A stretch of 64,000 bases of DNA from a virus (lineage: Duplodnaviria > Heunggongvirae > Uroviricota > Caudoviricetes). Shown here in pieces: positions 9,105 to 62,240 of this stretch; within the stretch, counting starts at the first letter, position 1, and each line of letters begins with the position of its first letter. The stretch is taken from IMG/VR virus record IMGVR_UViG_3300043464_002177; one strand, given 5' to 3'. The notes under the pieces are model-generated. The model saw only the letters and a program-made list of their open reading frames with translations. It made no database searches and was not told the DNA's origin. The position numbers and the translations under genes were made by a program.

Positions 9105-9302
9105 ATGATAACTCATCAAACAAAATTCGGAGAAGTTCAATTAAGAGTCGCAATGATTGACACTAATGGAACAGATTTATGTGAAGGCGTCGAAGTGAAA
9201 GTCGATGGCGAATTAATCGGAGAAGTTTTCGATGTTGATACAGATTACATTGAAGAAATGAGTGTTGAAGAAGTTGAAGAAATTGTAGAGAGTATTATCT
9301 AA
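9105..9302 (+). CDS. hypothetical acidic protein
   Basis: ORF in array. Confidence 0.45.
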   Translation: MITHQTKFGEVQLRVAMIDTNGTDLCEGVEVKVDGELIGEVFDVDTDYIEEMSVEEVEEIVESII

Positions 9303-9308
9303 CCTTTT

Positions 9309-9319
9309 AAATAAAACTA
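9309..9319 (+). promoter_or_regulatory. AAATAAAACTA motif copy
   Basis: ttttaaataaaactaactATG at 9323. Confidence 0.45.
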
Positions 9320-9322
9320 ACT

Positions 9323-9694
9323 ATGGCAAAGAAATTTAAAGTAAGGTTCAACCTGGGGAAAGGAAAGAACTACATGAAGTGGAAAGTAGAATCGGATGGA
9401 GAGTCCAACTACTACAGCCCTGAAGAATATAACCTGTATATGTACGGCTGCCAGTTGAAGAACCAGCGGGCTACTGCAAACAAGATTCACCAGGGAGCTA
9501 ACAAAGCTGTATGCGCCTGGATCTTGTGCGACACAATTCTGCTGGCACAAAACATCGAGCTTCCTGAAGCAAACACCAGGTTAACATATAACCCGCGTGT
9601 CAGGCCCAACTGGATGGCGGGAGATGTGCTCGCAGATAACGCTAACTTCGAAAGCATTTGGAGCGACGGTAGAAAATTATTCACAAATATTTAA
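9323..9694 (+). CDS. hypothetical protein
   Basis: ORF in array. Confidence 0.5.
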   Translation: MAKKFKVRFNLGKGKNYMKWKVESDGESNYYSPEEYNLYMYGCQLKNQRATANKIHQGANKAVCAWILCDTILLAQNIELPEANTRLTYNPRVRPNWMAGDVLADNANFESIWSDGRKLFTNI

Positions 9695-9706
9695 ATCTAT
9701 TTTAAA

Positions 9707-9997
9707 ATGGATGCATTAACTTTAAGTAATGAATATCTCGACAAGTATAAGTTCGAGATGTACACCAAAGCCGGCGATAACGCCTGCAGGTCAATTGTGC
9801 GCGCTGCGTGGAAAAAGCTGGACGGTACCAAAAGAGTTTCAGGGCAGGAGATGTTTGATTACGTAAAAGAAAGAATGGACGTAGTCAAAGCGAAACATCC
9901 TGAAGTATACGACACTGAGCCTAACTACCACATCTACCTGCTGGTGGCTAAGAAAGCAAAAGAGTATGAGTACGACTTCACACAATATTTTCAATAA
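9707..9997 (+). CDS. hypothetical protein
   Basis: ORF in array. Confidence 0.5.
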   Translation: MDALTLSNEYLDKYKFEMYTKAGDNACRSIVRAAWKKLDGTKRVSGQEMFDYVKERMDVVKAKHPEVYDTEPNYHIYLLVAKKAKEYEYDFTQYFQ

Positions 9998-30922: not shown

Positions 30923-31399
30923 CTAGTTTTCTTTTGATCTGTCCCATTTAGCTTTTCTAGCTTCTGGTGACAATTGGATATCTTCGTCTATAGTGTGTTC
31001 AATATGTGCGCGAATGCAGGTTTGTGATAATCGACAGTTCATAAGGTAATTGTTAATATACCCCATGATGTTTGCACTACCAATAGGATTTGCAGAGTGA
31101 ACATAAATTTGTGGTAAGGGTATGCTCTTCCCCATACTTTCTGCAACAAGAAACTTTGCGGCATCATAGCCTGTCTTCTCGTTGATGTTTTGATAATCTA
31201 ATGTGTAGTTGTTTCTTACATTTGTATAGTATTCAACCATAGCCTGTTCGCCTAGGTCATGATCCAATGAAATGATTTCAAACGAATCCAATCCATGAAA
31301 CTTAACCTGGGCAACAAACTCATCATAGTTTCTACATACTATCCAATTATCAGTAACTGGTGTTCTAACATCGTCAAGATAAAGGTATTTCTTTTCCAT
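30923..31399 (-). CDS. hypothetical protein
   Basis: ORF; SLDHDLG ... HSANPIG pattern, family not confidently recognised. Confidence 0.5.
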   Translation of the reverse strand: MEKKYLYLDDVRTPVTDNWIVCRNYDEFVAQVKFHGLDSFEIISLDHDLGEQAMVEYYTNVRNNYTLDYQNINEKTGYDAAKFLVAESMGKSIPLPQIYVHSANPIGSANIMGYINNYLMNCRLSQTCIRAHIEHTIDEDIQLSPEARKAKWDRSKEN

Positions 31400-33706: not shown

Positions 33707-34360
33707 TTAAGTGTCAACATTTTGTAAATCATCTGTGTGATGATCTAATGGCCCCATCTCACTTCCGATCTCTCTCTTCTTTAACATTTTTATAACTTCA
33801 TGCAAATCATATGGTTCAAAGTCTGGGTTACCATCCATACCGATGTCCATTCTTCTACCATTACTGATTTTTTGATTGTGTGGTAAATGACAATGTCCAT
33901 GTAAATGAATCCTACCCTTACGTAATCCATTCCAACTTGATATTGGGTAGTGACAACATTCAATTGTTTCGCCCATATATTCAAATTGTTCAAACCAGCT
34001 TACACTTTTAAACAAACTTCTTACACCACTTCTATTTCTATCAATGTGATGATCATGATTACCAAGAACTAAATGAATGTTCTTGCAAATCAATCGATTA
34101 TAAAACTCTTCAATGTTTTCAAATCCACCAAAGGACCAATCACCTAAATGGATCAACACATCATCTTGACCAGCACATTCATTTATACTATTAACAATAG
34201 CGGCATTCATTTTTTCTAATGTACCGAATGGTCTAGTCTGCGCTTCAGGAACCTCACCATTAGGTAAACGCCAGTTCGTAACACCTCTACATATATTTTT
34301 ATGTGAATAGTGAGTATCAGATGTAACCCAAACTTTAATATTGTTATCTATTCTTATCAT
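33707..34360 (-). CDS. calcineurin-like metallophosphoesterase
   Basis: VTSDTHYSH / HLGDWSFGG / LGNHDHH / HGHCHLPH motif series. Confidence 0.55.
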   Translation of the reverse strand: MIRIDNNIKVWVTSDTHYSHKNICRGVTNWRLPNGEVPEAQTRPFGTLEKMNAAIVNSINECAGQDDVLIHLGDWSFGGFENIEEFYNRLICKNIHLVLGNHDHHIDRNRSGVRSLFKSVSWFEQFEYMGETIECCHYPISSWNGLRKGRIHLHGHCHLPHNQKISNGRRMDIGMDGNPDFEPYDLHEVIKMLKKREIGSEMGPLDHHTDDLQNVDT

Positions 34361-38500: not shown

Positions 38501-38628
38501 TTAATTCCTTTATTAGCACTATCGGCTCCTTTGGAGATTAAATCATCCAAAACGTCTTCATTGACATTTTCATTTGAAAGTCTCTGTTTTAACCTTACAA
38601 TCTGGTCCTCGTTAAATATAAATCTCAT
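35521..38628 (-). CDS. 1035-aa multidomain cell-wall hydrolase: PG-binding domain + M23 (LytM) peptidase + large C-terminal region
   Basis: GYSLPRFGTDGLFGPETAAAVNKYK (PG_binding_1-like); HGGIDIGAKVGTPIKSIADGKVI ... GPHLHLTL (M23 H-x-x-x-D and H-x-H motifs); size fits a virion-associated or tail lysin. Confidence 0.55.
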   Translation of the reverse strand: MRFIFNEDQIVRLKQRLSNENVNEDVLDDLISKGADSANKGINAAKDFISGLDVPVEKKSSDVPHKADFISGDVEDFYEILDNIKSPITQQKYGSMTRQQGVEAVQIGLQLLGYSLPRFGTDGLFGPETAAAVNKYKEEKNIVDDDTAEDNVAAANATDLNEMVLITPVPITSDIKHGFNEKRGNRIHGGIDIGAKVGTPIKSIADGKVIAAGPLGSKCGDGISVEHAEGLTSGYCHLSGINVKAGDIIKQGVVIGLTGGAVGAKGSGNSQGPHLHLTLKKNGQRVDPMQYFGSSIGDYYDSGSSVAVLGGATISTEMVKQLISDLKSKNITSDDIKKHIDPAVTTGGSIDFTDLDLNTPEGVDAYEKICSNFITQRKQGTNVTGAMMAKSAESVFKRYGKYVPPELALAQLTLEGGLSTDSNARPIKTKNPFNVGNTDKPYKDNYQPSFQSGVDLYYDLIARRYLVKGKTANDLVNDFRNSIGSHYATPIKYEEGLKSLIKNIREKNAPIYAQLKTKNQSTLAEELLNEADKRQAIKNAFGFNDDWANEFHNLSDKLSIWIVDTFVKDYIRNLQMTDIDLNGKDPKEYTVELFNATSPNRNPTWDRLYKPKYEYIMHWIRAPRREQLNIRAMSLEDAYSQAQEWHDTLQVRKQSNYQETGDVFIDYRNADGIGYYWVHLGKGYCDDERERMGHCGRSNTGKLISFRRINEFGEGESYLTVDYRPGGILGDFHRHGNKKPTTRFHKQIVDFLINTRYPVTQLTQQGVHRYEDNFHLTDLSPEDLRKVYQGNAALKFDINNSDNWPEIIEAILNNELTFSQFSNKVRAELLAAAIEMDKGEEFSAKFTDKMVVDTIDDFSTISSSVKRVYVLNFAERINNILTKQLDKKATTEAAMEFFAGALKEISQELFDNYQLFCGFIDHGFRKFNEEQRIAIISQRGIKRSLYSCSEILPFLTRFAENSPVDSNGNIAVKTEDGYWGLIKQNGETILHPQFLGVGQNKIDRTGKTYLIKNVQNVFYSFNPESGEYKKYTMKG

Positions 38629-38663
38629 AACTTATAAATATTACAAAATGATAAGTTGTTAGC

Positions 38664-38909
38664 TTATATTTTAGCTTTCTCTATGGTTTTGTTATTATCC
38701 TTATTATCATCTTCCCATGGTGCAGTTTCATTACCCCAATCTAAAAAATCCTCACCCTTATAATCAGGGTAATTCTTACTCATATAATCAATACCTTCAA
38801 CCCATCTCCAAGAGACGATTGCAACTACAATAAACATTATCCCGAAAACTAGTAGGTATTCCATATTATTTGTTTTTTTTATTATGTGATTTAGGTCTTC
38901 CATTTTCAT
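38664..38909 (-). CDS. hypothetical small membrane protein
   Basis: One TM helix. Confidence 0.4.
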   Translation of the reverse strand: MKMEDLNHIIKKTNNMEYLLVFGIMFIVVAIVSWRWVEGIDYMSKNYPDYKGEDFLDWGNETAPWEDDNKDNNKTIEKAKI

Positions 38910-39228
38910 CCAGCAGAACGAAAACTATCTTATCAATTCTAATGATAGATTCTTTTGTATTTTTGTTTCTAACGTCACAACATATTGTTACTGATGTTGT
39001 TCCAAATTTAACCAAATCCATACCAAATTCAATTACATCACCAACCTTTGCTGTGGTTACAAAATCAATCTCAGACATTGCTTTAGTTACAATATTAGAA
39101 CTACTCAATTGACAAATGGCAAATATTGCGGCCTCCTCATCAATCCACTTTAATAATTGACCACCAAATAATGTGCCTCTTGGGTTTAAATCACCTGGTT
39201 TAATCAACTTTCTAGTTCTATATATCAT
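38866..39228 (-). CDS. hotdog-fold acyl-CoA thioesterase (YciA-like)
   Basis: GTLFGGQLLKWIDEEAAIFA ... VGDVIEFG resembles YciA/4HBT family. Confidence 0.45.
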   Translation of the reverse strand: MIYRTRKLIKPGDLNPRGTLFGGQLLKWIDEEAAIFAICQLSSSNIVTKAMSEIDFVTTAKVGDVIEFGMDLVKFGTTSVTICCDVRNKNTKESIIRIDKIVFVLLDENGRPKSHNKKNK

Positions 39229-39823
39229 CAGTTAAAAATTTTAAAATCTTTTCTTTAATACCGGTTTGTTTTATCCCTTCAGATCCACGAGGCGTCTCAA
39301 CGAAGTTATCCAATCCCCATTCATGTACATATTCAACACTATAATCAAGACCAGTTTTACCCATTCTTAAATCATCAATTGAAACCCAATGAGTCACTTC
39401 TGGGTGGTCATGTAAGTATTGTTTGATCTCAATACATCTGGTCTGTTCTAAATCCCATTGACGAGACCAGGGGAATCCAGCTTTATAACCTTCAATATAC
39501 CAAGTACATTGACCAAGGTTTGGCGTGAAATCTATAGGTTTCTTGATAATACCTTGTTGTTCATAATATTCACCCATCTGTTCAACACTTGCCCATCTCT
39601 TCCAATCTGAACTAACAACAATTTCAGCACCAGTTTCTTCTAATATTGAATTTAAAAGTTTAATTGCTTTATCATCAAAGTTATCGAAACGATATTCCAA
39701 TGGAATTTCATCATTGGTCATGGATAATTTACGTCCACCCCAATCTTTTTGTTTTTTAAATCGTCCACCCCAATTATTGGATAAACAAATCACACCATCG
39801 TGATCAAGAAATATTACTTTCAT
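39218..39823 (-). CDS. HAD-superfamily phosphatase
   Basis: Motif I FLDHDGV, motif II VVSSDW, C-terminal SIDDL. Confidence 0.45.
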   Translation of the reverse strand: MKVIFLDHDGVICLSNNWGGRFKKQKDWGGRKLSMTNDEIPLEYRFDNFDDKAIKLLNSILEETGAEIVVSSDWKRWASVEQMGEYYEQQGIIKKPIDFTPNLGQCTWYIEGYKAGFPWSRQWDLEQTRCIEIKQYLHDHPEVTHWVSIDDLRMGKTGLDYSVEYVHEWGLDNFVETPRGSEGIKQTGIKEKILKFLTDDI

Positions 39824-40142
39824 CCTTTCTTTTTTTAAGTATTAATCTAAATGTACTCAAAAAACCTAAAAACATGAATAGTTGAACTGGCCAATACGGG
39901 AGATTTTGCAGTTCATGAAGCATCCAAAATATGTTCATATTAAGCCATGATAATAGAACAAGATTACTATCTCTTGATTCTTTCTCCCCAATAAAAATGT
40001 ATAATGCTAAAAGCAAAGTTGGTAAAACCATTACTGTAGCCATCCACGTCCATTTCAACGTCCAAAAAACGTCTTTAAGTAGCCACGAAATTACATGGAT
40101 CTCATGAGTATTCAAAATTTTTTTATGAGTTTCCTTCGACAT
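39804..40142 (-). CDS. hypothetical membrane protein
   Basis: Three hydrophobic helices. Confidence 0.4.
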   Translation of the reverse strand: MSKETHKKILNTHEIHVISWLLKDVFWTLKWTWMATVMVLPTLLLALYIFIGEKESRDSNLVLLSWLNMNIFWMLHELQNLPYWPVQLFMFLGFLSTFRLILKKRKDESNIS

Positions 40143-40548
40143 ATTCTAACTGAGGTGTCCAAACACCTTCAGAAATTACTTTGGGTGTCCCATTTCTATC
40201 GATCATAACCCACTCATAATTCACAATACCCCAAGGTTCAAATTGCTCAATAACATCTTCAAGACTGAAACACTTACATGAATAGATATCAAATTGAGCC
40301 ATAGCTGGTTCGTGATGATCCCAGATATGTATTGAGGAATGAGAGGTTGCTAAAGTAACTGTTCCTGTTAATCCTTCATTACCTGGATAATCAACATAAA
40401 CACTGGTTGGTCCGCCAACCACTTCCATCTTTACTTTGTGGACTAAATCAACAAACCATTTATTAAGAACATCCACCTCTTTTGGTGGATTTTTAACCCA
40501 AATCTTCATTAGAAGATGTTGATGATATGGAACAAATTCTTCCTGCAT
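40123..40548 (-). CDS. speH: S-adenosylmethionine decarboxylase proenzyme, SpeH/class-1b-like (pyruvoyl-dependent)
   Basis: VTLATSHSSIHIWDHHE matches the autoprocessing-site motif (AESHISIHTWPE) of small bacterial AdoMetDCs; size 141 aa fits. Confidence 0.55.
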   Translation of the reverse strand: MQEEFVPYHQHLLMKIWVKNPPKEVDVLNKWFVDLVHKVKMEVVGGPTSVYVDYPGNEGLTGTVTLATSHSSIHIWDHHEPAMAQFDIYSCKCFSLEDVIEQFEPWGIVNYEWVMIDRNGTPKVISEGVWTPQLEYVEGNS

Positions 40549-40625
40549 TAGTATAATTTTTACTATACATATATATCATCAAAATTGTATTTTTTTATGA
40601 TTTATTTAAAATAGATTTCCATCTA

Positions 40626-41306
40626 TTATTTGGTGAACTTTTTGAAGTTCTTTACGAATGGACGTTCGTATTTTTTAAGTTCCTTTACCTCTAAACCGTT
40701 GTATAAACCGGTAGACATAAAAGCTTGAATTTCATCATCAATGATCTTCTTATCATCAACATACCCCATCTTAATAAGCTTCTTTTTTAACTTATTGTAA
40801 TGTGTTGGTTTGATCTCAGCAATTAGTTTCTTAACCTCAGCATTATATTCTTTATTTGTATAATATAAACCATGTGCGATTTCATGATCGATAGTCTTAA
40901 GATCTTTACTGCTAGCACCAATTAGATACCATGGTTTATGAGTACCATCATTCTTTTGTTGCGCATCAGAACCACAATAGAAATAAATGTTATTCATTAT
41001 TTCATCATACTGTGTTTCCTTATAAAAAGCATCAACACCTTTCTCTAGTATATTAGATGGAATATTATAACCAGTCCAATCTTCTGGATATGTAAAGACA
41101 TCTTTCTTCCAGAACTTCTTATAATGTCTCATATACTCTACCCAAGAAAAATATTTTCCTCTGAATTTTTTAAATGGGGTTTCATAAAATTCTTGATAAC
41201 GACAGAACAACATAGCCCTATCATAATTGTCATCAACAATTACACAATAGATAGATGGTTTTATTTCTTTTACTTTACCTTTAACTAAAGGGTGATTTAT
41301 TTTCAT
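40626..41306 (-). CDS. hypothetical protein with HExxH motif
   Basis: IDHEIAHGLYY; no family recognised. Confidence 0.45.
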   Translation of the reverse strand: MKINHPLVKGKVKEIKPSIYCVIVDDNYDRAMLFCRYQEFYETPFKKFRGKYFSWVEYMRHYKKFWKKDVFTYPEDWTGYNIPSNILEKGVDAFYKETQYDEIMNNIYFYCGSDAQQKNDGTHKPWYLIGASSKDLKTIDHEIAHGLYYTNKEYNAEVKKLIAEIKPTHYNKLKKKLIKMGYVDDKKIIDDEIQAFMSTGLYNGLEVKELKKYERPFVKNFKKFTK

Positions 41307-41381
41307 ATTAAATGTTTAAGAATAATTGTTAACGATTAAACACCATGTTTTAATATAGTTAAAAAGTTGGAAATAAAAAAA

Positions 41382-41711
41382 TTAAAGTGCGAAACTTTCT
41401 CCACACCCGCAGGTCCTTGATGCGTTTGGATTTACCCATTGAAATCCTTTCCCGTTTAAACCACTAGAGTATTGTAGTTCAGTTCCGAATAAATAAAGAA
41501 CAGATTTTTTATCGATCACCACTTTAAGTTCTGGTAGTTCGATGATCTCATCCATTTCGGTAATGTCTGTATCAAAGTCCATAACATATGATAGCCCACT
41601 ACATCCACCACCCTTAACCCCTACACGCAAAAAATGGGTACCGTTGTCGATACCCTCTTCTTTCATAACGTCTTTAAGATGTGTTAATGCTGTCTCAGTA
41701 ATAGTAATCAT
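41382..41711 (-). CDS. iscA: A-type Fe-S cluster carrier (IscA/ErpA/HesB family)
   Basis: GGGCSGLSY and C-terminal TCGCGESF: the three conserved Cys at canonical spacing. Confidence 0.7.
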   Translation of the reverse strand: MITITETALTHLKDVMKEEGIDNGTHFLRVGVKGGGCSGLSYVMDFDTDITEMDEIIELPELKVVIDKKSVLYLFGTELQYSSGLNGKGFQWVNPNASRTCGCGESFAL

Positions 41712-41713
41712 GA

Positions 41714-41941
41714 TTAACCTTCGTCAATTAATTTACCATCATGAAAATACTTTTTAAGTGTTTCAAGTTTATCCTCGGCGTCCACCAGTCTTTGTAAAGC
41801 GATTTCTCCATCCTTAAAAAAATCGTTTGCTGTGTGATCACCAATACCAACTGAGTTCTCAGTTAATAATTCCAATGCCATTAGTGCTTGCTCTCGTTCA
41901 GAGATCGCCTGCGCTGTTAATGCTTTAATTAGTCTAGACAT
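41714..41941 (-). CDS. hypothetical protein
   Basis: ORF. Confidence 0.45.
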   Translation of the reverse strand: MSRLIKALTAQAISEREQALMALELLTENSVGIGDHTANDFFKDGEIALQRLVDAEDKLETLKKYFHDGKLIDEG

Positions 41942-41942
41942 T

Positions 41943-42128
41943 CTATTTGTTGTTTAATTTATTTAAAAGTGAATCTGTTGTTTTTTTATCAACAGTTATT
42001 TCTTTTACCACATGGGATTCTTTTCTTAATTTAGATAACTCTTTTTGTTGAAAGTAACAAACAAGTAGTAGGACTACTGCAGCACCTTTTGTCAGGTTAT
42101 CATGGTTTTTTTTGAAGAATTCAATCAT
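41943..42128 (-). CDS. hypothetical protein
   Basis: ORF. Confidence 0.4.
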   Translation of the reverse strand: MIEFFKKNHDNLTKGAAVVLLLVCYFQQKELSKLRKESHVVKEITVDKKTTDSLLNKLNNK

Positions 42129-48587: not shown

Positions 48588-49601
48588 TTAATTACTTAAT
48601 GGTGCTTTAATCGCTGGATGTGATTGATAGTTTTCTAATATCACGTCCTGATCACCAAATGAAAATATACCATCTCTAATGTGTACAGTTGGTAACTCAA
48701 ATGGTTCTCTTTTTATTTGTTCTTTGGCTTGTTCAATATGATTTGAATAAAGATGTACATCACCTAAATTACCAATCAGTTCATCTGGTACCATACCCAT
48801 TTCATCAGCTAGCATTGTTAATAACAAACCATAAGACGCTATATTAAATGGTAAACCTAAAAATGTATCTACCGAACGTTGATTCCACATTAAAGAGATT
48901 GCTCGTTTAGGTACAGGATACAACTCATCAATTTCTTCATGATCAGCTCTGTGAAAATCAAATGGTTCAAATACTTTATATTTTTTAGATGCTAAATCCA
49001 GACGCTCTTCGACGCTTAACACTCTAGTATAAACTTGAAATCCGTAATGACAGGGTGGTAAAACCATTTGGTCTAACTCACCCACATTCCAAGCACTCAC
49101 CATTAATCGTCTACTATCTGGATTTGTTTTAAGTTCATCAATAAGGTTTTGAATTTGATCTATTGGTTCATATCCATTCCAAATATTCCATTCTCTCCAT
49201 TGTTTACCATAGATCGGCCCCAAATCACCGAAATCTTTTGCAAAATCATCATTTGTTTTAATTAACTCAATAAATTGCTCCTGAGTATATCTAGGACCGT
49301 GAAAGTCTTTAGTAAACAATTTTGTGTAATTCTTATATGCATCACCATCCCAAATATGACAATTATTATCTACAAGATATTTGATGTTAGTGCTACCACT
49401 TAGAAACCAAATCAACTCAGTTACCATTGTTTTCCAAGCCATCTTCTTTGTGGTTAACAAAGGGAAACCTTCTGACATTTTATGACGAATCTGTCTACCA
49501 AATACAGATATTGTACCAGTGCCGGTTCTATCTGATTTAGTTATTCCGTTGTCTAAAATGTCTTGTAATAATGCTTGATATTGTTTGTCTATATTATTCA
49601 T
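48588..49601 (-). CDS. thyA: thymidylate synthase (ThyA-type) with internal insertion
   Basis: Colinear ThyA motifs incl. FPLLTTKK, catalytic LPPCHYGFQ, DLGPIYGKQWR; ~50-aa insertion (RVLSVEERLDLASKKYKVFEPFDFHRADHEEIDELYPVPKRAISLMWNQ). Confidence 0.8.
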   Translation of the reverse strand: MNNIDKQYQALLQDILDNGITKSDRTGTGTISVFGRQIRHKMSEGFPLLTTKKMAWKTMVTELIWFLSGSTNIKYLVDNNCHIWDGDAYKNYTKLFTKDFHGPRYTQEQFIELIKTNDDFAKDFGDLGPIYGKQWREWNIWNGYEPIDQIQNLIDELKTNPDSRRLMVSAWNVGELDQMVLPPCHYGFQVYTRVLSVEERLDLASKKYKVFEPFDFHRADHEEIDELYPVPKRAISLMWNQRSVDTFLGLPFNIASYGLLLTMLADEMGMVPDELIGNLGDVHLYSNHIEQAKEQIKREPFELPTVHIRDGIFSFGDQDVILENYQSHPAIKAPLSN

Positions 49602-51862: not shown

Positions 51863-53218
51863 ATGAAGAAAAAAATACTATTGTTATCTGATGATTTAAG
51901 AATGTCATCAGGTATTGCCACTATGTCGAAAGAGATTGTGATGGGCACCATACACAAGTATGATTGGGTACAACTTGGTGCTGCAATTAAACATCCAGAG
52001 TTCGGTAAAGTTGTTGATATAAACGATGATATCCGTAAAAGAACTGGTGTTAAAAATGCAAATTTAAAAATAATCCCATACAATGGTTATGGTGATATTG
52101 GTGTTTTAAGAAAATTAATAAAAGAAGAGAAGCCGGATGCTATTCTTCATTTTACTGATCCACATTATTGGCAGTGGTTGTATGATAATGAACATGAAGT
52201 TAGACAACAAGTTCCTTTATTGTATTATCATATATGGGATAATTTACCAGATCCATTATATAATAGAAACTATTATGAAAGTTGTGACTGGTTAGGTTGT
52301 ATATCTAAGCAAACATATGGTATCGTACATAGAGTTGGTAAATTACAAAATGGTTCCACATGGAAACCTTTAGAAGATTGGCAGATCAAATACGTTCCTC
52401 ATGGTATTAACCCAGAAACATTCAAACCATTGGATAAAGTTTCAGATGAAATAAAAAATATTATCTTTGGTGATAAGAAGTATGATTTTGTTTTATTTTT
52501 TAACAGTAGAAACATTAGAAGGAAACAACCAAGTGATGTTATCTATTCATTTAAATTGTTTTGTGATCAACTACCAAAAGAAAAAGCAGATAAGTGTCTA
52601 TTATTAATGCACACAGCCGCTGTTGATGAGAACGGAACAGACTTACCAGCAGTTATCGAAACTCTTTGTCCATATGATGTTAAGTTTACAGGATTAAAGT
52701 TAGAACAAGATAAGTTAAATGAAATATATAACCTAGTCGATTGTACTATCAACATCGCTAACAATGAAGGGTTTGGTTTAACAACGGCAGAATCATTGAT
52801 GGCTGGTACACCAATTATTGTTAATGTGACTGGTGGCTTACAAGATCAATGTGGATTTGAATATAGTGCAGATGATTATATTTCAGTTGGAACGTTACAT
52901 AATAAAAAAGTACACAGCTCAATATCACATGGCGAATGGGTAGAACCGATTTGGTCATCAGCTATAAATTTAAATGGATCTGTACCAACCCCATACATTT
53001 TTGATGACAGGGTAAACGATGATGATGTTGCAAATGTTATCATGAAGATGTATAAGATAGGTAAGAAAAAAAGAAAAGCAAAAGGATTAAAAGGTAGAGA
53101 GTTTATGTTAAACAATCTATCCAATAAAATAATGTGTGATAAAATGATTGAGGGTATTGAAGATGCTCTTAAGAATTGGGAACCTAAAAAAAGATTTGAT
53201 TTATATAAAATAGTATGA
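51863..53218 (+). CDS. GT-B fold glycosyltransferase (GT4/group-1 family)
   Basis: NNEGFGLTTAESLMAGTPIIVNVTGGLQDQ matches the E-x-F-G ... E-A-x-A-x-G-x-P-V-I signature. Confidence 0.55.
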   Translation: MKKKILLLSDDLRMSSGIATMSKEIVMGTIHKYDWVQLGAAIKHPEFGKVVDINDDIRKRTGVKNANLKIIPYNGYGDIGVLRKLIKEEKPDAILHFTDPHYWQWLYDNEHEVRQQVPLLYYHIWDNLPDPLYNRNYYESCDWLGCISKQTYGIVHRVGKLQNGSTWKPLEDWQIKYVPHGINPETFKPLDKVSDEIKNIIFGDKKYDFVLFFNSRNIRRKQPSDVIYSFKLFCDQLPKEKADKCLLLMHTAAVDENGTDLPAVIETLCPYDVKFTGLKLEQDKLNEIYNLVDCTINIANNEGFGLTTAESLMAGTPIIVNVTGGLQDQCGFEYSADDYISVGTLHNKKVHSSISHGEWVEPIWSSAINLNGSVPTPYIFDDRVNDDDVANVIMKMYKIGKKKRKAKGLKGREFMLNNLSNKIMCDKMIEGIEDALKNWEPKKRFDLYKIV

Positions 53219-54474
53219 GTAAACCGTTTTTATTATTTAGAGGGCCAGTACAAACTAGAAGTGGGTATGGCGCGCATTCAAGAGACCTTTTACAGGCTCT
53301 GTATGAAATGAACACATATGACATTAAGATTGACAGTTGTGGCTGGGGATCAACCCCAATGACTGCGCTAGAAAAAAATAATGTTTTTCATAAATGGATA
53401 GAATCAAATATCATATCATCACTAACAACACAGCCAGATGTTTATGTTCAAGTAACTGTACCAAATGAATTTCAAAGAGTTGGTAAGATTAACATAGGTA
53501 TCACTGCTGGAATTGAAACAACCGTCGCACCTAAATCTTGGGTTGATGGTTGTAACAAAATGGATATGATCATTGCGACATCACAATTTTCTAGTGAGGT
53601 TTTAATGAGTACAGTTTACAATGAGACCGATAATGTTACAGGAAAATTAATTAAACAACATAAGATTGAAAAACCAATAAAGGTTCTTTTTGAAGGTGTT
53701 CATCCTGATACATTCAACAATGAATATAGTGATATCGATTTAAATATTAATGAAGATTTTGCTTTCCTTTTTGTTGGTCATTGGTTAAAAGGTAATTTAG
53801 GTCAAGACAGAAAAGATGTGGGTATGTTAATCAAGTGTTTTGTTGAGGCATTTAAAAATGAGGAAAACAAACCGGCATTGATTCTTAAAACTTCATCAGC
53901 AACTTTCTCAATAAAGCAAAGAGAAGATCTATCTAAAAAAATAAAAGAATTGGTTGGTGACATTGAAACACCGCCACCAATTTACCTATTGTTTGGAGAA
54001 TTAACAGATAAAGAAATGAACAATCTTTACAACCATTCTAAAATTAAAGCAATGATTTCTTTAACAAAGGGTGAAGGATTCGGTAGACCACTATTAGAAT
54101 TCACAATGACTGGCAAACCGGTTATTGCATCTAATTGGTCTGGACATAAAGATTTCTTACCAATGGATAAGGGAATCATGATTGGCGGTAAATTAAACGA
54201 AGTTGATGAAAGTGCTATTGATGATTTCATTTTAAAAGGTTCAAAGTGGTTCACCGCAAATTACAATGAAGCTGCTGAAGTTATGAAGATCGTAAAGAAT
54301 GATTACCAGAAATTTTTAGATCGTGCAGAAAATCTAAGAATTGAAAATTCGACTAAGTTTAGTTTCCAGAGAATGGTAGAAGAGTTTGAAAAATTGTTAC
54401 CGAAAACAGTTCCACAAGAAGAGTTACCAAAACAAAAGCCAATTAACTTACCTAAATTAAATAAAATAAAATAA
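53215..54474 (+). CDS. GT-B fold glycosyltransferase (group-1-like)
   Basis: GEGFGRPLLEFTMTGKPVIASNWSGHKDFL. Confidence 0.5.
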   Translation: MSKPFLLFRGPVQTRSGYGAHSRDLLQALYEMNTYDIKIDSCGWGSTPMTALEKNNVFHKWIESNIISSLTTQPDVYVQVTVPNEFQRVGKINIGITAGIETTVAPKSWVDGCNKMDMIIATSQFSSEVLMSTVYNETDNVTGKLIKQHKIEKPIKVLFEGVHPDTFNNEYSDIDLNINEDFAFLFVGHWLKGNLGQDRKDVGMLIKCFVEAFKNEENKPALILKTSSATFSIKQREDLSKKIKELVGDIETPPPIYLLFGELTDKEMNNLYNHSKIKAMISLTKGEGFGRPLLEFTMTGKPVIASNWSGHKDFLPMDKGIMIGGKLNEVDESAIDDFILKGSKWFTANYNEAAEVMKIVKNDYQKFLDRAENLRIENSTKFSFQRMVEEFEKLLPKTVPQEELPKQKPINLPKLNKIK

Positions 54475-54483
54475 AATGCCTAT

Positions 54484-55107
54484 ATGAAAATTAGTTTTGC
54501 GATCACAGTATGTAATGAGTTTGAAGAAATCAAACAGTTAGTACCATTCTTAATCGAGAACAAAAGAGTAAACGATGAAATTGTTATTCTATTTGATAAT
54601 AAAAATGGAGATGAAAGAGTCTTAAATTATTTGTTAGAATTTAATAAACTACCAAATGTGCAGACTTGGCAAAGCATGGATTTTAATAATGATTTTTCGG
54701 AATGGAAAAATAAATTAAACGAATATTGTACAGGTGATTATATTTTTCAATTAGATGCTGACGAATTAATAAGTGAGTATATGGTTAAAAATCTACATGA
54801 GATAATCGAAGCTAACGATGAGATTGACTTATTTTATGTCCCAAGAATCAATACAGTAAAGGGAATTACTGAAGAACATATTAGAAGATGGAGATGGAAT
54901 GTAGACGCCGATGGTAGAGTAAACTTCCCAGATTACCAGGGTAGAATTTATAAATCTAAATTAAAATGGGGTGGTAAGGTACATGAAAGAATAGTAGGGG
55001 CTAAATTTTATTCTCTATTACCAACAGAAGATATGTACTCGTTATCACACCACAAAACAATTAGTAGACAAGAAAAACAAAATGATTATTATGAAAACAT
55101 TAAATGA
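54484..55107 (+). CDS. GT-A fold glycosyltransferase-like protein
   Basis: ISFAITVCNE ... FQLDADELI (DxD). Confidence 0.4.
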   Translation: MKISFAITVCNEFEEIKQLVPFLIENKRVNDEIVILFDNKNGDERVLNYLLEFNKLPNVQTWQSMDFNNDFSEWKNKLNEYCTGDYIFQLDADELISEYMVKNLHEIIEANDEIDLFYVPRINTVKGITEEHIRRWRWNVDADGRVNFPDYQGRIYKSKLKWGGKVHERIVGAKFYSLLPTEDMYSLSHHKTISRQEKQNDYYENIK

Positions 55108-55633
55108 AATTTATCAAAATTATCAATCACCTGATGGTCACGGTGATAAGGGCACAGCGCACACATACATAGATGAATATGAAAGATTATTAGAACCATA
55201 TAGAAAGAATTCAATTGTTCTTGAAATTGGTTTATGTGAAGGCGAATCTTTGAGAATGTGGGAAGAATATTTTATTGATTCAAAAGTGATTGGTGTCGAT
55301 ATCACTAGCAAATATTTAAGTGAATTAATTAAGGAGTGTACACATCACATTATTATTGCTGATGCAACTAGAGAGAGTATAATAAATAAAATTGATGAGA
55401 AAACATTTGATGTTTTAATTGATGATGGTAGTCATCGTCTAGTAGATCAACTAAAAACATTTTTTATTTTTAAAAATAAGATTAACCCTGGTGGGATTTA
55501 TATTATTGAAGATATTGAGGATTTGGATAATGTAAAAAATATCTTCTTAGCACTTCACAATAACGTAGAAATTATCGATAATAGACATATAAAAGGTAGA
55601 CACGATGATGTGTTAATAGTATATAAATTTTAA
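55082..55633 (+). CDS. class I SAM-dependent methyltransferase
   Basis: VLEIGLCEGES (motif I), VIGVDIT, VLIDDGSH. Confidence 0.5.
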   Translation: MIIMKTLNEIYQNYQSPDGHGDKGTAHTYIDEYERLLEPYRKNSIVLEIGLCEGESLRMWEEYFIDSKVIGVDITSKYLSELIKECTHHIIIADATRESIINKIDEKTFDVLIDDGSHRLVDQLKTFFIFKNKINPGGIYIIEDIEDLDNVKNIFLALHNNVEIIDNRHIKGRHDDVLIVYKF

Positions 55634-55636
55634 ACT

Positions 55637-56632
55637 ATGAAAGTATTAATTACAGGTATTGCGGGGCTGCTAGGTTCCAGATTAACAGATTACATCATTG
55701 AAAATCATCCGGATGTTCATATTGTTGGTATTGATGATTTAAGCGGTGGTTATTATGAAAACATTAATCATAAAGTTCCAGAATTTAGAAGATTAAATTT
55801 GGTAACAGGTGATTTGGAAAGTTGTTTTGAGGAACATAAATTTGATTATGTATACCACTTTGCAGCATATGCTGCTGAAGGTTTATCACCTTTCATTAGA
55901 AAATACAATTATGAAAATAATTTAATTTCAACAACCAGGATTATTAATCAATGCATCAAACACGATGTTAAAAGATTAGTTTTCACATCTACTATGGCAG
56001 TTTATGGGCATGGTTATGGTGATGTCTTTGATGAAGCTCAAATCCCTTCACCAATTGATCCATATGGTATTGCTAAATACGCTTGTGAAATGGATATTAA
56101 AGTTGCTGGTGAACAACACGGGCTTGATTGGTGCATCATTAGACCACACAATGTTTATGGGATTAAACAAAACATATGGGATAAATACCGTAACGTATTA
56201 GGTATTTGGATGTATCAACATATGAACGGTGAACCAATGACAATATTTGGAGATGGTGAACAAAAAAGAGCGTTCAGTTATATTGATGATTGTTTAGAGG
56301 GATTATGGAAAGCATCACAACTTCCTGAATGTTCTAAAGAGATTATTAATTTAGGTGGTACTAAACACTATACCATAAACGAAGCAAATAAGATTTTGCG
56401 TGAAGTTATTAATGGTGGAGAGACTATCCACAAAGAACAAAGACATGAAGTTAAAACAGCAGTACCCACTTGGGCTAAATCTGTTAGACTACTTGGTTAT
56501 GAAGATAAAACATCTTTACATGATGGTTTAAAATCAATGTGGGAGTGGGCTCAACAGCAACCAAAGAGAGATAGATTCATATGGGATTCATATGAACTAG
56601 ATAAAGGAATTTATAGTTTTTGGAAAAAATAA
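55637..56632 (+). CDS. NAD-dependent sugar epimerase/dehydratase (extended SDR)
   Basis: VLITGIAGLLGSRL Rossmann motif; YGIAKYACE (YxxxK). Confidence 0.7.
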   Translation: MKVLITGIAGLLGSRLTDYIIENHPDVHIVGIDDLSGGYYENINHKVPEFRRLNLVTGDLESCFEEHKFDYVYHFAAYAAEGLSPFIRKYNYENNLISTTRIINQCIKHDVKRLVFTSTMAVYGHGYGDVFDEAQIPSPIDPYGIAKYACEMDIKVAGEQHGLDWCIIRPHNVYGIKQNIWDKYRNVLGIWMYQHMNGEPMTIFGDGEQKRAFSYIDDCLEGLWKASQLPECSKEIINLGGTKHYTINEANKILREVINGGETIHKEQRHEVKTAVPTWAKSVRLLGYEDKTSLHDGLKSMWEWAQQQPKRDRFIWDSYELDKGIYSFWKK

Positions 56633-56636
56633 GAAT

Positions 56637-57218
56637 ATGAAAAAAATAGAATTTATTATCCCAACTTATAACAGACCAGATAAATTAATGGTAATGTTAT
56701 CATCAATAAAAGCTCAATCCGTTGACTTATGGAAAGTGCATGTTGTTGCTGATGCAGTATATGACGGGTATCAAGAAATAAAAGATTACTTTAAAGATGA
56801 CGAGAGATTTAAATTCTCTGAATTAAATGGTCCACATAAAGATTGGGGTCACACAGCAAGAAACTATGGATTAGAAAGAGCTGAAGAAGAATGGGTAGTA
56901 ATGTCTGGTGATGACAATTATTATGTTCCTGTTTTTGTTGCAGAATTTTTAGATGCGGTAAAATTCAGAAAAGACGCAAACTTCGTTCATTGTAATTTAG
57001 TACACAACTGGCTAAACAATGATTATATTGGTTTAATGTCTAGACCTCAACTTAACGGTATTGATATCGGTAACTTTATGACAAAGACAAAATTCGCAAA
57101 ACAAATGAGATTAGATGTTACTAAAGTAGATGCTGATGGGTTATTTGTAGAAGAATATATAGACAAATTTAAAGGAGGTATCATTCACATTCAAAAAATA
57201 TTATATGTCCACAACTAA
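56637..57218 (+). CDS. family-2 glycosyltransferase
   Basis: EFIIPTYNRPDKLMVMLSSI; SGDDNYY. Confidence 0.5.
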   Translation: MKKIEFIIPTYNRPDKLMVMLSSIKAQSVDLWKVHVVADAVYDGYQEIKDYFKDDERFKFSELNGPHKDWGHTARNYGLERAEEEWVVMSGDDNYYVPVFVAEFLDAVKFRKDANFVHCNLVHNWLNNDYIGLMSRPQLNGIDIGNFMTKTKFAKQMRLDVTKVDADGLFVEEYIDKFKGGIIHIQKILYVHN

Positions 57219-57648
57219 TATTGAGGGACACATACCAATACCTAGAAAAAATTATAATAAAAAACCAACATTACTAATAATAAGCGGAGAATCAATGGTT
57301 GGTAAAACTACATTGTGTTTTTTACTAAAGGAGGTTAAAAAATCTTATTATGTTAGTCTTGATCAATTAACATTAGATGTAAATTTACCAATAAAAAGTA
57401 TTAACGATTTGGTTAGTAAATTTGGTAATGATTTTTCTGCCCGTTCCATTTTTTATTTTTGTGAACACGTTTTCAGGAATAAAATAATTTTTATAGATTA
57501 TTGTTTTAATTTAATATTAAATAAAAAACAAGAACTTTTTATCTTTGATGGGGTTTATTTTACAAATGAAGAGTTTTTAAATGAGTTTATCAAAAAATTT
57601 GAAGATGCCTATCACATATGGATCGTCAATAGACCAACAAAAAAATAA
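57205..57648 (+). CDS. P-loop NTPase (kinase-like)
   Basis: Walker A GESMVGKTT. Confidence 0.45.
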   Translation: MSTTNIEGHIPIPRKNYNKKPTLLIISGESMVGKTTLCFLLKEVKKSYYVSLDQLTLDVNLPIKSINDLVSKFGNDFSARSIFYFCEHVFRNKIIFIDYCFNLILNKKQELFIFDGVYFTNEEFLNEFIKKFEDAYHIWIVNRPTKK

Positions 57649-57651
57649 TAT

Positions 57652-58764
57652 ATGAATATAACATTTGTTCTTGCAGTATTAAATAAATTAGATTTAACCA
57701 AAGATTGTTATTCTAGAATAAGGGATCTTTACCCAGAAGCACCATTCGTTATAAGTAGTGGTGGTTCAACTGATGGCACAAAAGAATGGTTGTTAGAAAT
57801 GTCTGATAAAGATGAATACTTAACAATTTTTCACGATGACGATAGATTAACATTTTCTGAAACATACAATTCAGGAATTAAGATGGTCGATACTGAAAAA
57901 TTAGTTTTGATTCACAATGATATGATCATAGGTGAAGGGTTTTTAGAGGCTATAGATAGACTATTAACCCCAAACATGTTATTATCATATACAACAATAG
58001 AACCACCCATTTTTAAGGGACATAGAAGACCAGGTAAAGTATTAATAGATCTGGGCTCATCGTTTGCTGATTTTGATTACTTTAACTTTAATGCATATGT
58101 TACTGCGAATAATAATAACGACATTTTATATGATGGTGCAGTTTTCTTTATGAGTGGATATAAGAAGATGTTTGAAGAAGTCGGGTTTTTTGATGGGTTT
58201 AGTTTCGTTCCTTGTTTCTGTGAAGATGATGATTTTATTATTAGAGCTAAATTAAAAGGTTATGAATTAAAAACTTGTGAGTCTGCAATTGTTTATCATT
58301 TTGTTTCACAAACGTCTAGATTTAGTGATGAGTTTAAAAAAGACAGAATAATTCATGAAGTAGCATCTACTAGAAATTTCGTAAGAAAATGGGGGGTAAC
58401 AATATCGGTGTTTAACGAATTGCGTTATTGGGAAGAGAAAAATTTTAAGTACAATACATTTTCAATGGGCTTACTTACAAGAAACAAAAAGAGATTAATG
58501 GAGGTAGAACCATTTTTCGACAAAATAGATCTAGGGGAAATACCTGAAGATTATATTAACAATGAACAAAAGAGAACCAGATATGATATTAGAACTAAAT
58601 TTACATTAACAGATACTGTAGATGTACTTATCACTGAGGTTAGTGAATTTACGGATGAAGATATTAATACATTAAAACGATTAAGATTATCAATACCTTA
58701 CTATGAACCTGGTGAATATCATATAGGTAATATGTTAATACAAATAAAAAAGGAGCTTAATTAG
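57652..58764 (+). CDS. family-2 glycosyltransferase
   Basis: FVLAVLNKLDLT ... SSGGSTDGT; CEDDDF. Confidence 0.5.
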   Translation: MNITFVLAVLNKLDLTKDCYSRIRDLYPEAPFVISSGGSTDGTKEWLLEMSDKDEYLTIFHDDDRLTFSETYNSGIKMVDTEKLVLIHNDMIIGEGFLEAIDRLLTPNMLLSYTTIEPPIFKGHRRPGKVLIDLGSSFADFDYFNFNAYVTANNNNDILYDGAVFFMSGYKKMFEEVGFFDGFSFVPCFCEDDDFIIRAKLKGYELKTCESAIVYHFVSQTSRFSDEFKKDRIIHEVASTRNFVRKWGVTISVFNELRYWEEKNFKYNTFSMGLLTRNKKRLMEVEPFFDKIDLGEIPEDYINNEQKRTRYDIRTKFTLTDTVDVLITEVSEFTDEDINTLKRLRLSIPYYEPGEYHIGNMLIQIKKELN

Positions 58765-60297: not shown

Positions 60298-62073
60298 TTA
60301 AAAATTATATTTAAGGTTTAAATTAATACTTCTTGTTGGTAAATCAACTGACGATCCCCAAACTCTACTAGCATCATTGAATAAGTTATAAAACAACATA
60401 GTGTATTCTAAATTTTTATACTTTGTGGTGTATCCAATGTTCACCAATCTCACACCTTTATTGTGTAAAAATTGTCGAACATCATTTCTATCTGCAAATG
60501 ATAAAGATTGATCAATTGGTTGATATCTACCTTCCACCCATAGCTTATTATAATTTAGTTTGATGTAGCCAAAATATGGTACTGTTTTATCAACTGGTTC
60601 TGTTGTGGTTCCTGTTAATCTTTTAACACCATAAACATATTCTGCTCTAGCATTCACACCTAATTTAGTTCCAAACAAACTATCATTAAAATAACCTAAC
60701 GTTGCACCGTTTACCGAAACGCCACCAATGTTATCTGTCCTAAAGACGTTTGTCGATAGTACGGTTACATTAAATGCTTCATCTAATTCTTTAAAGTAAA
60801 CGTCTAAATATAAATTACTTCTTTTATAACCAAATCGATATGTTTGACCTCTCTCTTGTATTAAATCCGGGTTTGGTAATTGTGTACCTCTACCATTTGT
60901 CATTGCTTGTTTAATCATCAAATAACTTGGTGCGTTTAAGCTATTGTCATAACTTGCAAATAGACCTTTGTATCCAACAATTGCTGAATATTCAAAACCA
61001 TTAAATGGATCAATATCAGTTATTTGAACATTCTTTAATCCTAAGCTTGTATAAACTTTTACTTTACCAATTTCATTAATCCAACGAATACCATGCTTTG
61101 TTGTTTTGTAATCATCGTTTGATACCCCGCCAACTAAACCATTTTCATATCTGATTTTTTCGATTGTGTTTGTTGAATATATACTAAATGAATGTGGTAA
61201 TTGATATTCAAGATTTGCGGTATATGCGTCTAGGCGACTAGCAACTTTTTTTGTCCCATCTAAAATATCTTCTGCACTGTTTTGATACGCAAGGTTCACA
61301 CGTAGTCTGTTTAAATTCATCTCATGATTAACAAACAAATATCTTTGTAGTTCCCATGTATAAACCGCCGGTCTTTGATAACCAGAGCTTCTGAAGCCAC
61401 CATTCCATCTATCTGTTCTTTCTAAATCATTTGATTGTGAAAAAATTAAAGTTGTTTTTTGTGTTGAAGACCAGTTCGCTTCAGACACCAATGCTTTTTG
61501 ATTGTAAGCACTGTGTTGAAATGTACTATCAGGAGATATCACATTACCATAGTCAATGTTGTTAAACCCAATACCAAATTTCTTACCCTTATAAGATGCT
61601 GATTGGCTAAATCCATCCGTACCACCCACATAATTTAATCCAACATGTGATGATTGAACACCAACCTTTCTTTCGATTGTTCCACCAATATTACCACCAT
61701 CTGTAATAGAAATTAACTTTGTGAATTCTAGTGGAACCCATCCAAAATATTGGTTTGGTCCGGTTCTAAACAAACCGTTATTAACCCTAATACCATTAAT
61801 TGATTGGTCAACTTGATTACCAGTAAACGCCCCAACATATGGACTTAGTTGTCCTGGACTTGTTTCCTGAATTCGTGCAGAGTTCAAGTATACTTTCGGG
61901 TTTTTTATTACTTGTTGCACCTGATAGTTGGTGCCCCCAACAACAACAACTTCTTTCAATTCTATTGAAGCTGTGTCTTTTTGAATTGTACCGCTACTTT
62001 GTTGTCCAAATGACATAGTAGTAGTAAACAATAGTGCTAACATTAGCGATAGCATTGTGATTGTTTTTCTCAT
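60298..62073 (-). CDS. TonB-dependent-receptor-like outer-membrane beta-barrel protein
   Basis: Start at MRKTITMLSLMLALLFTTTMSFGQQ (signal peptide); plug-like region (VVVVGGTNY ... DGGNIGGTIER); alternating beta-strand pattern; C-terminal ...LKYNF aromatic terminus. Confidence 0.45.
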   Translation of the reverse strand: MRKTITMLSLMLALLFTTTMSFGQQSSGTIQKDTASIELKEVVVVGGTNYQVQQVIKNPKVYLNSARIQETSPGQLSPYVGAFTGNQVDQSINGIRVNNGLFRTGPNQYFGWVPLEFTKLISITDGGNIGGTIERKVGVQSSHVGLNYVGGTDGFSQSASYKGKKFGIGFNNIDYGNVISPDSTFQHSAYNQKALVSEANWSSTQKTTLIFSQSNDLERTDRWNGGFRSSGYQRPAVYTWELQRYLFVNHEMNLNRLRVNLAYQNSAEDILDGTKKVASRLDAYTANLEYQLPHSFSIYSTNTIEKIRYENGLVGGVSNDDYKTTKHGIRWINEIGKVKVYTSLGLKNVQITDIDPFNGFEYSAIVGYKGLFASYDNSLNAPSYLMIKQAMTNGRGTQLPNPDLIQERGQTYRFGYKRSNLYLDVYFKELDEAFNVTVLSTNVFRTDNIGGVSVNGATLGYFNDSLFGTKLGVNARAEYVYGVKRLTGTTTEPVDKTVPYFGYIKLNYNKLWVEGRYQPIDQSLSFADRNDVRQFLHNKGVRLVNIGYTTKYKNLEYTMLFYNLFNDASRVWGSSVDLPTRSINLNLKYNF

Positions 62074-62106
62074 TTTGTTTTTGTTTAAGAAAAATTTATA
62101 AAATTG

Positions 62107-62196
62107 CGGGGAGGAAGAGATTCGGACTCTCGATTGAATGTTAAGTCCAATAGCAGCTTCGGAGGCTGTCGGTTTAAACCACTCACCCACCTCCCC
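62107..62196 (-). tRNA. tRNA-like cloverleaf, 90 nt (anticodon-loop CUCCGAA suggests anticodon CCG; long variable arm)
   Basis: On - strand: 7-bp acceptor stem GGGGAGG/CCUCCCC; U8; D-arm with A14, GG, A21; anticodon stem CAGC/GCUG with loop C-U-CCG-A-A; 21-nt variable arm with 5-bp stem; T-arm GAGAG-UCCGAAU-CUCUU (G53, C56, A58, C61 conserved; C at 55); discriminator G; no encoded CCA. Confidence 0.35.
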
Positions 62197-62240
62197 TTGC
62201 AATCATATTATAATATAAACAAAAAATATCAGATATACAA

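Follow-up and report, generated by a model that had tools for sequence, protein, structure and literature searches.

The closest described counterparts of the gene considered here come from pelagiphages. The SpeD homolog of HTVC201P, a 40-kb marine podovirus, restored no spermidine in an E. coli delta-speD strain and had no S-adenosylmethionine decarboxylase (AdoMetDC) activity; it decarboxylates L-arginine with a kcat/Km of ~290 M-1 s-1, ornithine and lysine not being used (Li et al. 2023, PNAS, PMC9992855). Across the phage SpeD homologs assayed, arginine or ornithine served as the substrate, not lysine (PMC9992855). Here we describe a SpeD-like gene from a 64,000-nt stretch of viral DNA (IMG/VR record IMGVR_UViG_3300043464_002177), called the window below. 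Judged from its sequence, the encoded protein is a predicted member of a distinct Thr-Ser-His clade of the SpeD superfamily carried by jumbo phages, not a canonical AdoMetDC. The gene and its key sites are located as follows:

40123-40548, minus strand: SpeD-like pyruvoyl proenzyme with AdoMet_dc fold, 141 aa (PF02675)
40321-40347, minus strand: T-S-H-S-S-I-H-I-W processing/catalytic motif, residues 68-76 of the 141-aa protein
40276-40278, minus strand: codon of Cys91

An initial annotation of the window had called this gene a SpeH-type AdoMet decarboxylase retaining the self-cleavage motif. The fold and the motif stand. The protein matches the Pfam family AdoMet_dc (PF02675) with 41.1 bits against a cut-off of 25 (E 2.5e-10), and its Ser69, His74 and Cys91 occupy the alignment positions of Ser63, His68 and Cys83, the processing and catalytic residues of T. 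maritima AdoMetDC (PMC10407285). The Ser-His dyad is present and the Ser/His/Cys set is intact; Thr68, Ser69, His70, His74, Trp76 and Cys91 are all invariant in an alignment of 43 sequences. The specific label, however, is doubtful, since the protein fails the NCBI AdoMetDC equivalog model TIGR03330 (30.8 bits, below the cut-off of 75.65), carries a Thr-Ser site, lacks a characteristic proline and has an arginine decarboxylase as its nearest characterised homolog.

These departures become apparent upon alignment with the canonical class 1b enzymes (T. maritima 1TLU, Aquifex 2III, B. subtilis SpeD and S-PM2 SpeD). The fold is common to all, and Ser, His and Cys lie at equivalent spacing, whereas sequence identity is 21-23% and insertions are found in two loops. 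In the aligned motif region, the window protein reads LAESHISIHTWPEH, compared with LATSHSSIHIWDHHEP in Aquifex AdoMetDC (2iii). Where the canonical enzymes are cleaved at Glu-Ser, the window protein has Thr68-Ser69, and its Trp76 is followed by Asp77, not Pro; Asp occupies this position in 120 of 120 close relatives. According to Li et al. (PMC10407285), every bona fide AdoMetDC retains the proline that follows Trp/Phe in the H-T-W-P-E motif, and arginine decarboxylases have lost it.

The fourth position after the catalytic histidine provides a further distinction. It is His78 in the window protein and varies widely among 120 jumbo-clade relatives (His in 41, Asn in 27, Ser in 19, Gln in 16 and Glu in one, with Ala and other residues also occurring). 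Glutamate is found there in all 41 bacterial homologs of group A, defined below, and in all three pelagiphage homologs; the three canonical references have Glu, Glu and Asp. Because the constraint on this position is relaxed, the alignment argues against the canonical mode of AdoMet binding in the jumbo clade. The AdoMetDC label for the 141-aa protein is probably wrong or, at best, unproven.

Database searches separate the protein from canonical SpeD in the same way. In blastp comparisons it scores 94 bits against the HTVC201P enzyme (38% identity over 110 residues), 28-33 bits against the S-PM2 and phiYS40 AdoMetDCs and a B. subtilis-type probe, and 22 bits against SpeDC domains. A tblastn search of 50,697 phage records retrieved only 11 pelagiphages and one related uncultured phage. 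A canonical SpeD probe retrieved 151 phage records, mostly cyanophages, and the two lists share a single pelagiphage, HTVC103P, with a marginal match (E 7e-4).

A search of 1.84 billion cluster representatives yielded 568 clusters (50% identity) for the SpeD-like family at E <= 1e-3. Among the best 150 representatives, 139 possess the motif; Thr precedes Ser in 132 of these 139, while Pro follows Trp in only 6. Some family representatives (P0278, P0287, P0304, P0326, P0368, P0250 and P0258) are SpeD-like proteins of 257-382 aa, extended by an in-frame C-terminal fusion to a GIY-YIG homing endonuclease-like module or another domain.

A profile built from a 9-sequence alignment and scanned against 185,579 species genomes revealed two further groups. 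Group A, with the motif IETSH...HxWDE, is 30-39% identical to the window protein in the trimmed alignment. Its bacterial members are ~30 marine SAR86-like Gammaproteobacteria together with some Phycisphaerae and Alphaproteobacteria, and the group includes the pelagiphage enzyme. Group B, with the motif VTSHI[AS]FH[YF]W and 24-33% identity to the window protein, is found in Candidate Phyla Radiation (CPR) bacteria, DPANN archaea and methanogens. From its taxa and its Thr/Phe/Tyr residues, and not from accession numbers, we infer that group B corresponds to the published SpeDC (ornithine decarboxylase) group.

In a neighbour-joining tree with 100 bootstraps, built from a set that does not include the published phage ornithine decarboxylases (ATV46410, QMP83838 and CAB accessions), the jumbo-phage SpeD-like proteins are monophyletic (bootstrap 100). 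Group B falls outside the jumbo clade plus group A, and all of them lie within a Thr-Ser superclade (bootstrap 100). Only 4 of 100 bootstraps join the jumbo clade directly to HTVC201P and S35C6, which places it outside the validated SpeDA clade. The jumbo clade is also marked by an invariant signature of its own, GNEGLTGTVTLATSH..IHIWD. Only four alignment columns discriminate the speE-linked gammaproteobacterial proteins from the pelagiphage ones, and the window clade is split one to one over them.

The window protein shares with HTVC201P SpeDA (AXH71538) its phage origin, the class 1b AdoMet_dc fold, the Thr-Ser site, the H-x-W-D motif, a GN-x-G-L-T loop and two residues inserted ahead of the Q-x-D-x-Y-[ST]-C segment. 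It differs in being 19 residues longer, in belonging to a separate sister clade and in lacking Glu at the fourth position after the histidine; its source is a freshwater jumbo phage rather than a marine podovirus.

With SpeDC (PMC10407285) the protein has in common the Thr before the pyruvoyl Ser and the Thr-Ser superclade. In the putative SpeDC group, however, Phe stands four positions after the serine in 15 of 15 sequences and Tyr or Phe six positions after it in 15 of 15, whereas the window clade has Ile at both. Of the diagnostic SpeDC residues Gln, Thr, Phe and Tyr (PMC10407285), whose published positions were reconstructed rather than read, Thr alone is present in the window protein. A SpeDC identity was considered and rejected, as the Phe/Tyr signature is absent.

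On balance, the SpeD-like protein is somewhat more likely than not to be an arginine or ornithine decarboxylase, with arginine ahead of ornithine. Self-cleavage between Thr68 and Ser69 would release a beta chain (residues 1-68) and an alpha chain bearing an N-terminal pyruvoyl group derived from Ser69, with His74 and Cys91 having predicted roles in processing and decarboxylation. The substrate would be a basic amino acid, L-arginine as the first choice and L-ornithine as the second, and the product, agmatine or putrescine, would feed host polyamine synthesis during infection; the substrate and any benefit to the phage are predictions here. The initial annotation had proposed that the phage pushes polyamine synthesis. 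This is plausible, albeit probably through agmatine or putrescine rather than decarboxylated S-adenosylmethionine (SAM).

Several observations weigh against this assignment. The jumbo clade is sister to group A (96 of 100 bootstraps) and not nested in it, and the assayed arginine decarboxylase lies within group A. The enzyme of phiYS40, a validated AdoMetDC, also lacks the proline in our alignment. The role given here to the Glu at the fourth position after the histidine, that of a ribose ligand of AdoMet equivalent to human Glu247 (the human histidine being His243), is a presumed one. The genes that would partner the enzyme or its neighbours (speE, speB and Fe-S clients) may lie elsewhere in the ~320 kb genome.

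The bacterial contexts of group A add to these points. At 28 loci from Gammaproteobacteria, a spermidine synthase homolog lies next to the group A gene in divergent orientation, in the conserved neighbourhood amt-speE-speD-argS-priA:

L020-L057, match at ~5001-5370 of each: SAR86-like Thr-Ser-His SpeD homologs, on marine genome contigs

By context, these SAR86-like genes would be AdoMetDCs, though they encode Thr-Ser and lack the Pro. Because these speE-paired proteins lack it, the published Pro rule may not be absolute; if they are true AdoMetDCs, SAR86-type proteins would contradict the rule of an invariant Pro. The context differs in pelagiphages. In HTVC201P (L008) and S35-C6 (L011), the SpeD homolog lies directly upstream of the gene for the ribonucleotide reductase alpha subunit, and two more pelagiphages have the same adjacency in the features listed under their tblastn matches.

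The SAR86-like loci bear on an alternative that we consider unlikely while giving it real weight, namely that the 141-aa protein is a genuine AdoMetDC whose decarboxylated SAM passes to a host or phage spermidine synthase and raises spermidine. It would agree with the PF02675 match and the intact Ser/His/Cys set. Thr-Ser-His relatives with 33-39% identity occur back-to-back with a spermidine synthase homolog in ~28 SAR86-like genomes, with no second speD within +/-5 kb of those genes. One bona fide AdoMetDC sits inside the neofunctionalised clade (PMC9992855), and the phiYS40 AdoMetDC likewise lacks the Pro. Against it stand the score below TIGR03330 and the absence of two canonical residues, Glu ahead of the serine and Pro behind the tryptophan. 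At the fourth position after the histidine, where the speE-linked bacterial proteins invariantly have Glu, the jumbo clade shows no conservation. Moreover, the closest assayed enzyme has no AdoMetDC activity (PMC9992855). Neither spermidine synthase (Spermine_synth) nor agmatinase or related families are among the Pfam matches of the window, whose 64 kb represent about one fifth of the genome.

The same tree leaves some room for the jumbo clade to use another substrate (lysine, diaminobutyrate or carboxyspermidine, for instance, or some other amino acid) as a further neofunctionalisation, which we regard as improbable. The clade is separate with a bootstrap of 100 and is not nested in any characterised group; it combines its own signature with the relaxed position after the histidine and lacks the Phe/Tyr of the putative ornithine decarboxylase group. 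SpeD homologs have, in addition, switched substrate several times (PMC10407285). However, nothing positive points to any particular substrate, and the assayed phage homologs use arginine or ornithine and not lysine. The remainder of our estimates goes to an inactive 141-aa protein.

Beyond the SpeD-like gene, the minus-strand region 38866-41711 is densely coding and contains six genes, of which the other five, with one motif, are:

41382-41711, minus strand: A-type Fe-S carrier, 109 aa, with Cys37, Cys101 and Cys103 (PF01521, TIGR00049)
40626-41306, minus strand: conserved hypothetical protein with HEIAH, 226 aa, between IscA and the SpeD-like gene
40872-40886, minus strand: HEIAH of the 226-aa protein, residues 141-145
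39804-40142, minus strand: predicted membrane protein with hydrophobic segments, 112 aa, between the SpeD-like gene and HAD
39218-39823, minus strand: HAD_SAK_2 hydrolase, 201 aa (PF18143)
38866-39228, minus strand: 4HBT thioesterase, 120 aa (PF03061)

The initial annotation had described four small host-like genes on this strand, an acyl-CoA thioesterase, a HAD phosphatase, the decarboxylase and an IscA carrier, as a cluster of metabolic genes. Its positions are correct, as are its domains at the superfamily level; the 112-aa and 226-aa genes went unmentioned. Profile searches for PF02675, PF01521, PF03061 and HAD placed all four products above the curated Pfam cut-offs (4HBT, HAD_SAK_2, AdoMet_dc and Fe-S_biosyn), and PHROGs and NCBIfam concur at the family level. 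The four genes are real, intact and host-like. What is shown directly here covers gene models, membership of families, catalytic residues, synteny and the position in the tree. Phages are already known to carry genes of all four types.

The SpeD-like, 112-aa, HAD and 4HBT genes overlap successively by 11-20 nt. Such stop/start overlaps extend from the SpeD-like gene to the thioesterase and point to co-expression and no more. A promoter scan found promoter-like sites at a frequency not above that of shuffled sequence, and a terminator scan found a single weak terminator-like hairpin at the IscA stop.

The source of the window is best understood from its relatives. The window has ~32% G+C and 114 tightly packed open reading frames (ORFs) with phage-type families. 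Its exact proteins recur in ~32 blocks of the collection, the longest contig with them being 117 kb, and from their JGI record names we take these blocks to be freshwater lake samples. Relatives with 70-80% protein identity are located on 294-329 kb contigs with a shared gene order: thymidylate synthase, NlpC/P60, PcfJ-like, IscA, SpeD-like, HAD and a ~1,000-aa peptidoglycan hydrolase. Those relatives carry homing-endonuclease insertions. We conclude that the source is an uncultured freshwater jumbo phage. Cellular DNA was considered and rejected: the same order of genes is seen again on contigs of ~305-330 kb, which also carry homing endonucleases and give phage-family matches. One homolog is binned into a Bacteroidota metagenome-assembled genome, a weak hint at a Bacteroidota host. 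Neither blastn of positions 38600-42000 nor tblastn of the 635-aa PcfJ-like neighbour gave a match in the 50,697 phage records.

Comparison with these relatives does not bear out the proposed four-gene cluster as a functional unit, as the thioesterase and the 226-aa gene are variable in syntenic relatives and the SpeD-like gene occurs elsewhere without IscA or HAD. In L001 (324 kb, 75% identity), a SIR2 gene is inserted between the 226-aa and SpeD-like genes and a 91-aa ORF replaces the thioesterase; L013 (305 kb, 71% identity) is without both the 226-aa gene and the thioesterase. In L015 and L016, the SpeD-like gene (72% identity) is found without IscA or HAD, beside primase-like, Metallophos and methyltransferase genes. 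A single pathway formed by the four genes was rejected, as their contexts vary. Their adjacency is best explained by shared descent in the accessory region of one lineage, not by functional coupling. The region would accordingly hold several independently acquired auxiliary genes instead of one pathway, and this account as a whole, including the basic-amino-acid decarboxylase, is the one we lean towards.

One fact speaks against such independence: the order IscA, SpeD-like, HAD is kept in at least three diverged genomes, those of the window, L001 and L013. It is kept despite insertions and replacements between the genes, and the 11-20 nt overlaps of the SpeD-like, 112-aa, HAD and 4HBT genes suggest co-translation. 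Both could be taken to mean that a single module is made up of IscA, the SpeD-like protein and HAD_SAK_2, perhaps joined by the 226-aa and 112-aa proteins, for example one that builds or modifies a single cofactor, nucleotide or nucleic-acid product. We find this very unlikely. In L015 and L016 the SpeD-like gene stands amid entirely different neighbours, the pelagiphage homolog adjoins ribonucleotide reductase genes, and the thioesterase of phage Xoo-sp13 occurs in an unrelated neighbourhood. Synteny within one phage lineage is explicable by descent, and we know of no pathway that joins the IscA, SpeD-like and HAD families. We likewise give little credence to a combined version, where the SpeD fold of the jumbo clade has moved on to yet another substrate, neither SAM nor arginine nor ornithine, and possibly acts with the co-retained A-type carrier and HAD_SAK_2.

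In L001, the thymidylate synthase gene (1-1689) is interrupted by an ORF whose product has the DNA-binding domain of I-TevI; the SIR2 gene lies at 9280-9957. In the window, thyA is intact (48588-49601) and no SIR2 is found.

By its sequence, the IscA-like protein is a complete A-type carrier. It scores 59.3 bits against PF01521 (cut-off 26.3) and 111.3 bits against TIGR00049 (cut-off 58.8), matches phrog_17776 and aligns over its full length with Aq_1857, HI1723 and E. coli IscA, the GCSG and CGCG segments being part of the match. As initially annotated, all three cysteines are present, Cys37, Cys101 and Cys103 aligning with those of solved A-type carriers. The protein remains below the equivalog cut-offs for ErpA (99.2 vs. 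117 bits), IscA (88.3 vs. 150.6) and SufA (90.6 vs. 136.2).

The view that such carriers are uncommon in phages is also borne out. In tblastn against the 50,697 phage records, clearly viral matches were limited to LR756504 (56% identity), a 636-kb huge metagenomic phage and the closest match in the collection, and LR756511, likewise a huge metagenomic phage; the remaining matches look like bacterial DNA. Nishimura et al. (2017, PMC5332604) described A-type carriers in 14 marine environmental viral genomes, often together with IscU, radical-SAM, Cas4 or glutaredoxin genes, and sufA is known from OM43 phages (PMC10580990). Like these published viral ATC/SufA/IscA genes, the gene described here encodes a small stand-alone PF01521 protein of a type scattered among phage lineages. 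Unlike there, IscU, radical-SAM, Cas4 and glutaredoxin were not detected in the window, and the carrier belongs to a freshwater jumbo phage. The initial annotation had suggested that the carrier supports an Fe-S enzyme such as ribonucleotide reductase or radical-SAM proteins. No Fe-S clients of these kinds were detected among the family matches of the window, 64 kb of a ~320 kb genome; the carrier would supply Fe-S clusters to apoproteins of the host or of the phage whose genes lie elsewhere.

The 120-aa protein is, by its sequence features, assigned to the hot-dog fold acyl-CoA thioesterases of the YciA/Acot acyl-CoA hydrolase group. It matches 4HBT (PF03061) with 50.1 bits (cut-off 20.6, E 3.4e-13) and phrog_18230 (E 7.8e-37), and aligns with the PDB acyl-CoA hydrolases 2gvh and 1vpm, sharing the DxNxxGxxFGG...D pattern (D13, N15, G18, F21-G22-G23 and D30). 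Its score against the YciA equivalog NF007970, 39.4 bits, is below the cut-off of 162. The thioesterases of jumbo phages XacN1 and Xoo-sp13 and of Stenotrophomonas phages CM1/RAS14 (phrog_18230) have the same size and are 55-61% identical over the full length. Around the Xoo-sp13 gene the neighbourhood is different, and none of the genes annotated there is an IscA, SpeD-like or HAD gene.

The 201-aa protein had been listed as a HAD phosphatase among metabolic genes. The HAD family and its catalytic motifs are confirmed; the match, however, is to HAD_SAK_2 (PF18143, 74.6 bits, cut-off 27.5, E 1.3e-20), with no recognisable metabolic subfamily. The Pfam name derives from RNA-repair "Swiss Army Knife" proteins. 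Motif I (D7-H-D9-G-V11), S71/S72 and D150-D151 are invariant in 30 homologs, as befits a competent Asp-nucleophile phosphohydrolase, which the protein is predicted to be. An AlphaFold2 model (pLDDT 92) compared with the PDB by Foldseek gave weak matches (E >= 0.02), nearly all of them HAD enzymes, including the phosphatase domain of T4 polynucleotide kinase; the protein has no PDB sequence match and no NCBIfam match.

This hydrolase stands alone, with a cREC_REC gene (~8 kb away), a 2H-phosphoesterase and Metallophos genes in the window and none of them adjacent. Because cREC_REC, 2H-phosphoesterase/Acb1-like and Metallophos genes occur in the window, a role of the hydrolase in nucleotide or RNA-end processing is at least as likely as one in central metabolism. 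These RNA-end and nucleotide families beside HAD_SAK_2 suggest an RNA-repair or anti-defence theme. The cREC_REC gene is at 30923-31399 (placed by position relative to L001), a Metallophos gene is at 33707-34360, and the 2H/Acb1-like gene lies somewhere within 1-31000. There are two Metallophos genes in the window, and a Nuc_deoxyri_tr2 gene is found in a relative.

The remaining two genes of the region encode proteins of less certain affiliation. The 112-aa protein gave no Pfam, PHROG or NCBIfam match. Its hydrophobic segments span residues ~33-52 and ~84-102, and its gene overlaps each neighbour by 20 nt. A 112-aa gene at the same position is found in L001 and L005, some callers giving 79 aa, and L013 has other small ORFs there. 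The 226-aa protein gave no Pfam family and no convincing fold match; it is 74-96% identical across its best 120 homologs, with HEIAH (141-145) and also D190-D191-E192 invariant. This HExxH protein is possibly a metalloprotein of the zincin-like kind.

Elsewhere in the window, the plus-strand block 51863-58764 contains glycosyltransferase, NAD-dependent epimerase/dehydratase and methyltransferase-type genes, which suggests phage-encoded sugar or surface modification. ARAGORN predicts a 91-nt tRNA-Arg(CCG) at 62106-62196 (minus strand) within a TTG-start ORF (60298-62202); there is no Rfam tRNA at this position and the call is doubtful. Scanned against Rfam over its full length, the window gave no match.

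The window protein and hundreds of its relatives carry the annotation "S-adenosylmethionine decarboxylase" or "S-adenosylmethionine/arginine decarboxylase-like". Surveys of auxiliary metabolic genes then infer phage-driven spermidine synthesis, while the enzymology of Thr-Ser-His proteins shows that the name can mislead. The window adds an abundant clade of freshwater jumbo phages to the Thr-Ser-His branch, extending the known story, and its IscA, thioesterase and HAD genes extend the catalogue of accessory genes in jumbo phages. What it would yield for the family is a specific substrate prediction for the SpeD homologs of jumbo phages, in which a basic amino acid, arginine first, may take the place of S-adenosylmethionine.

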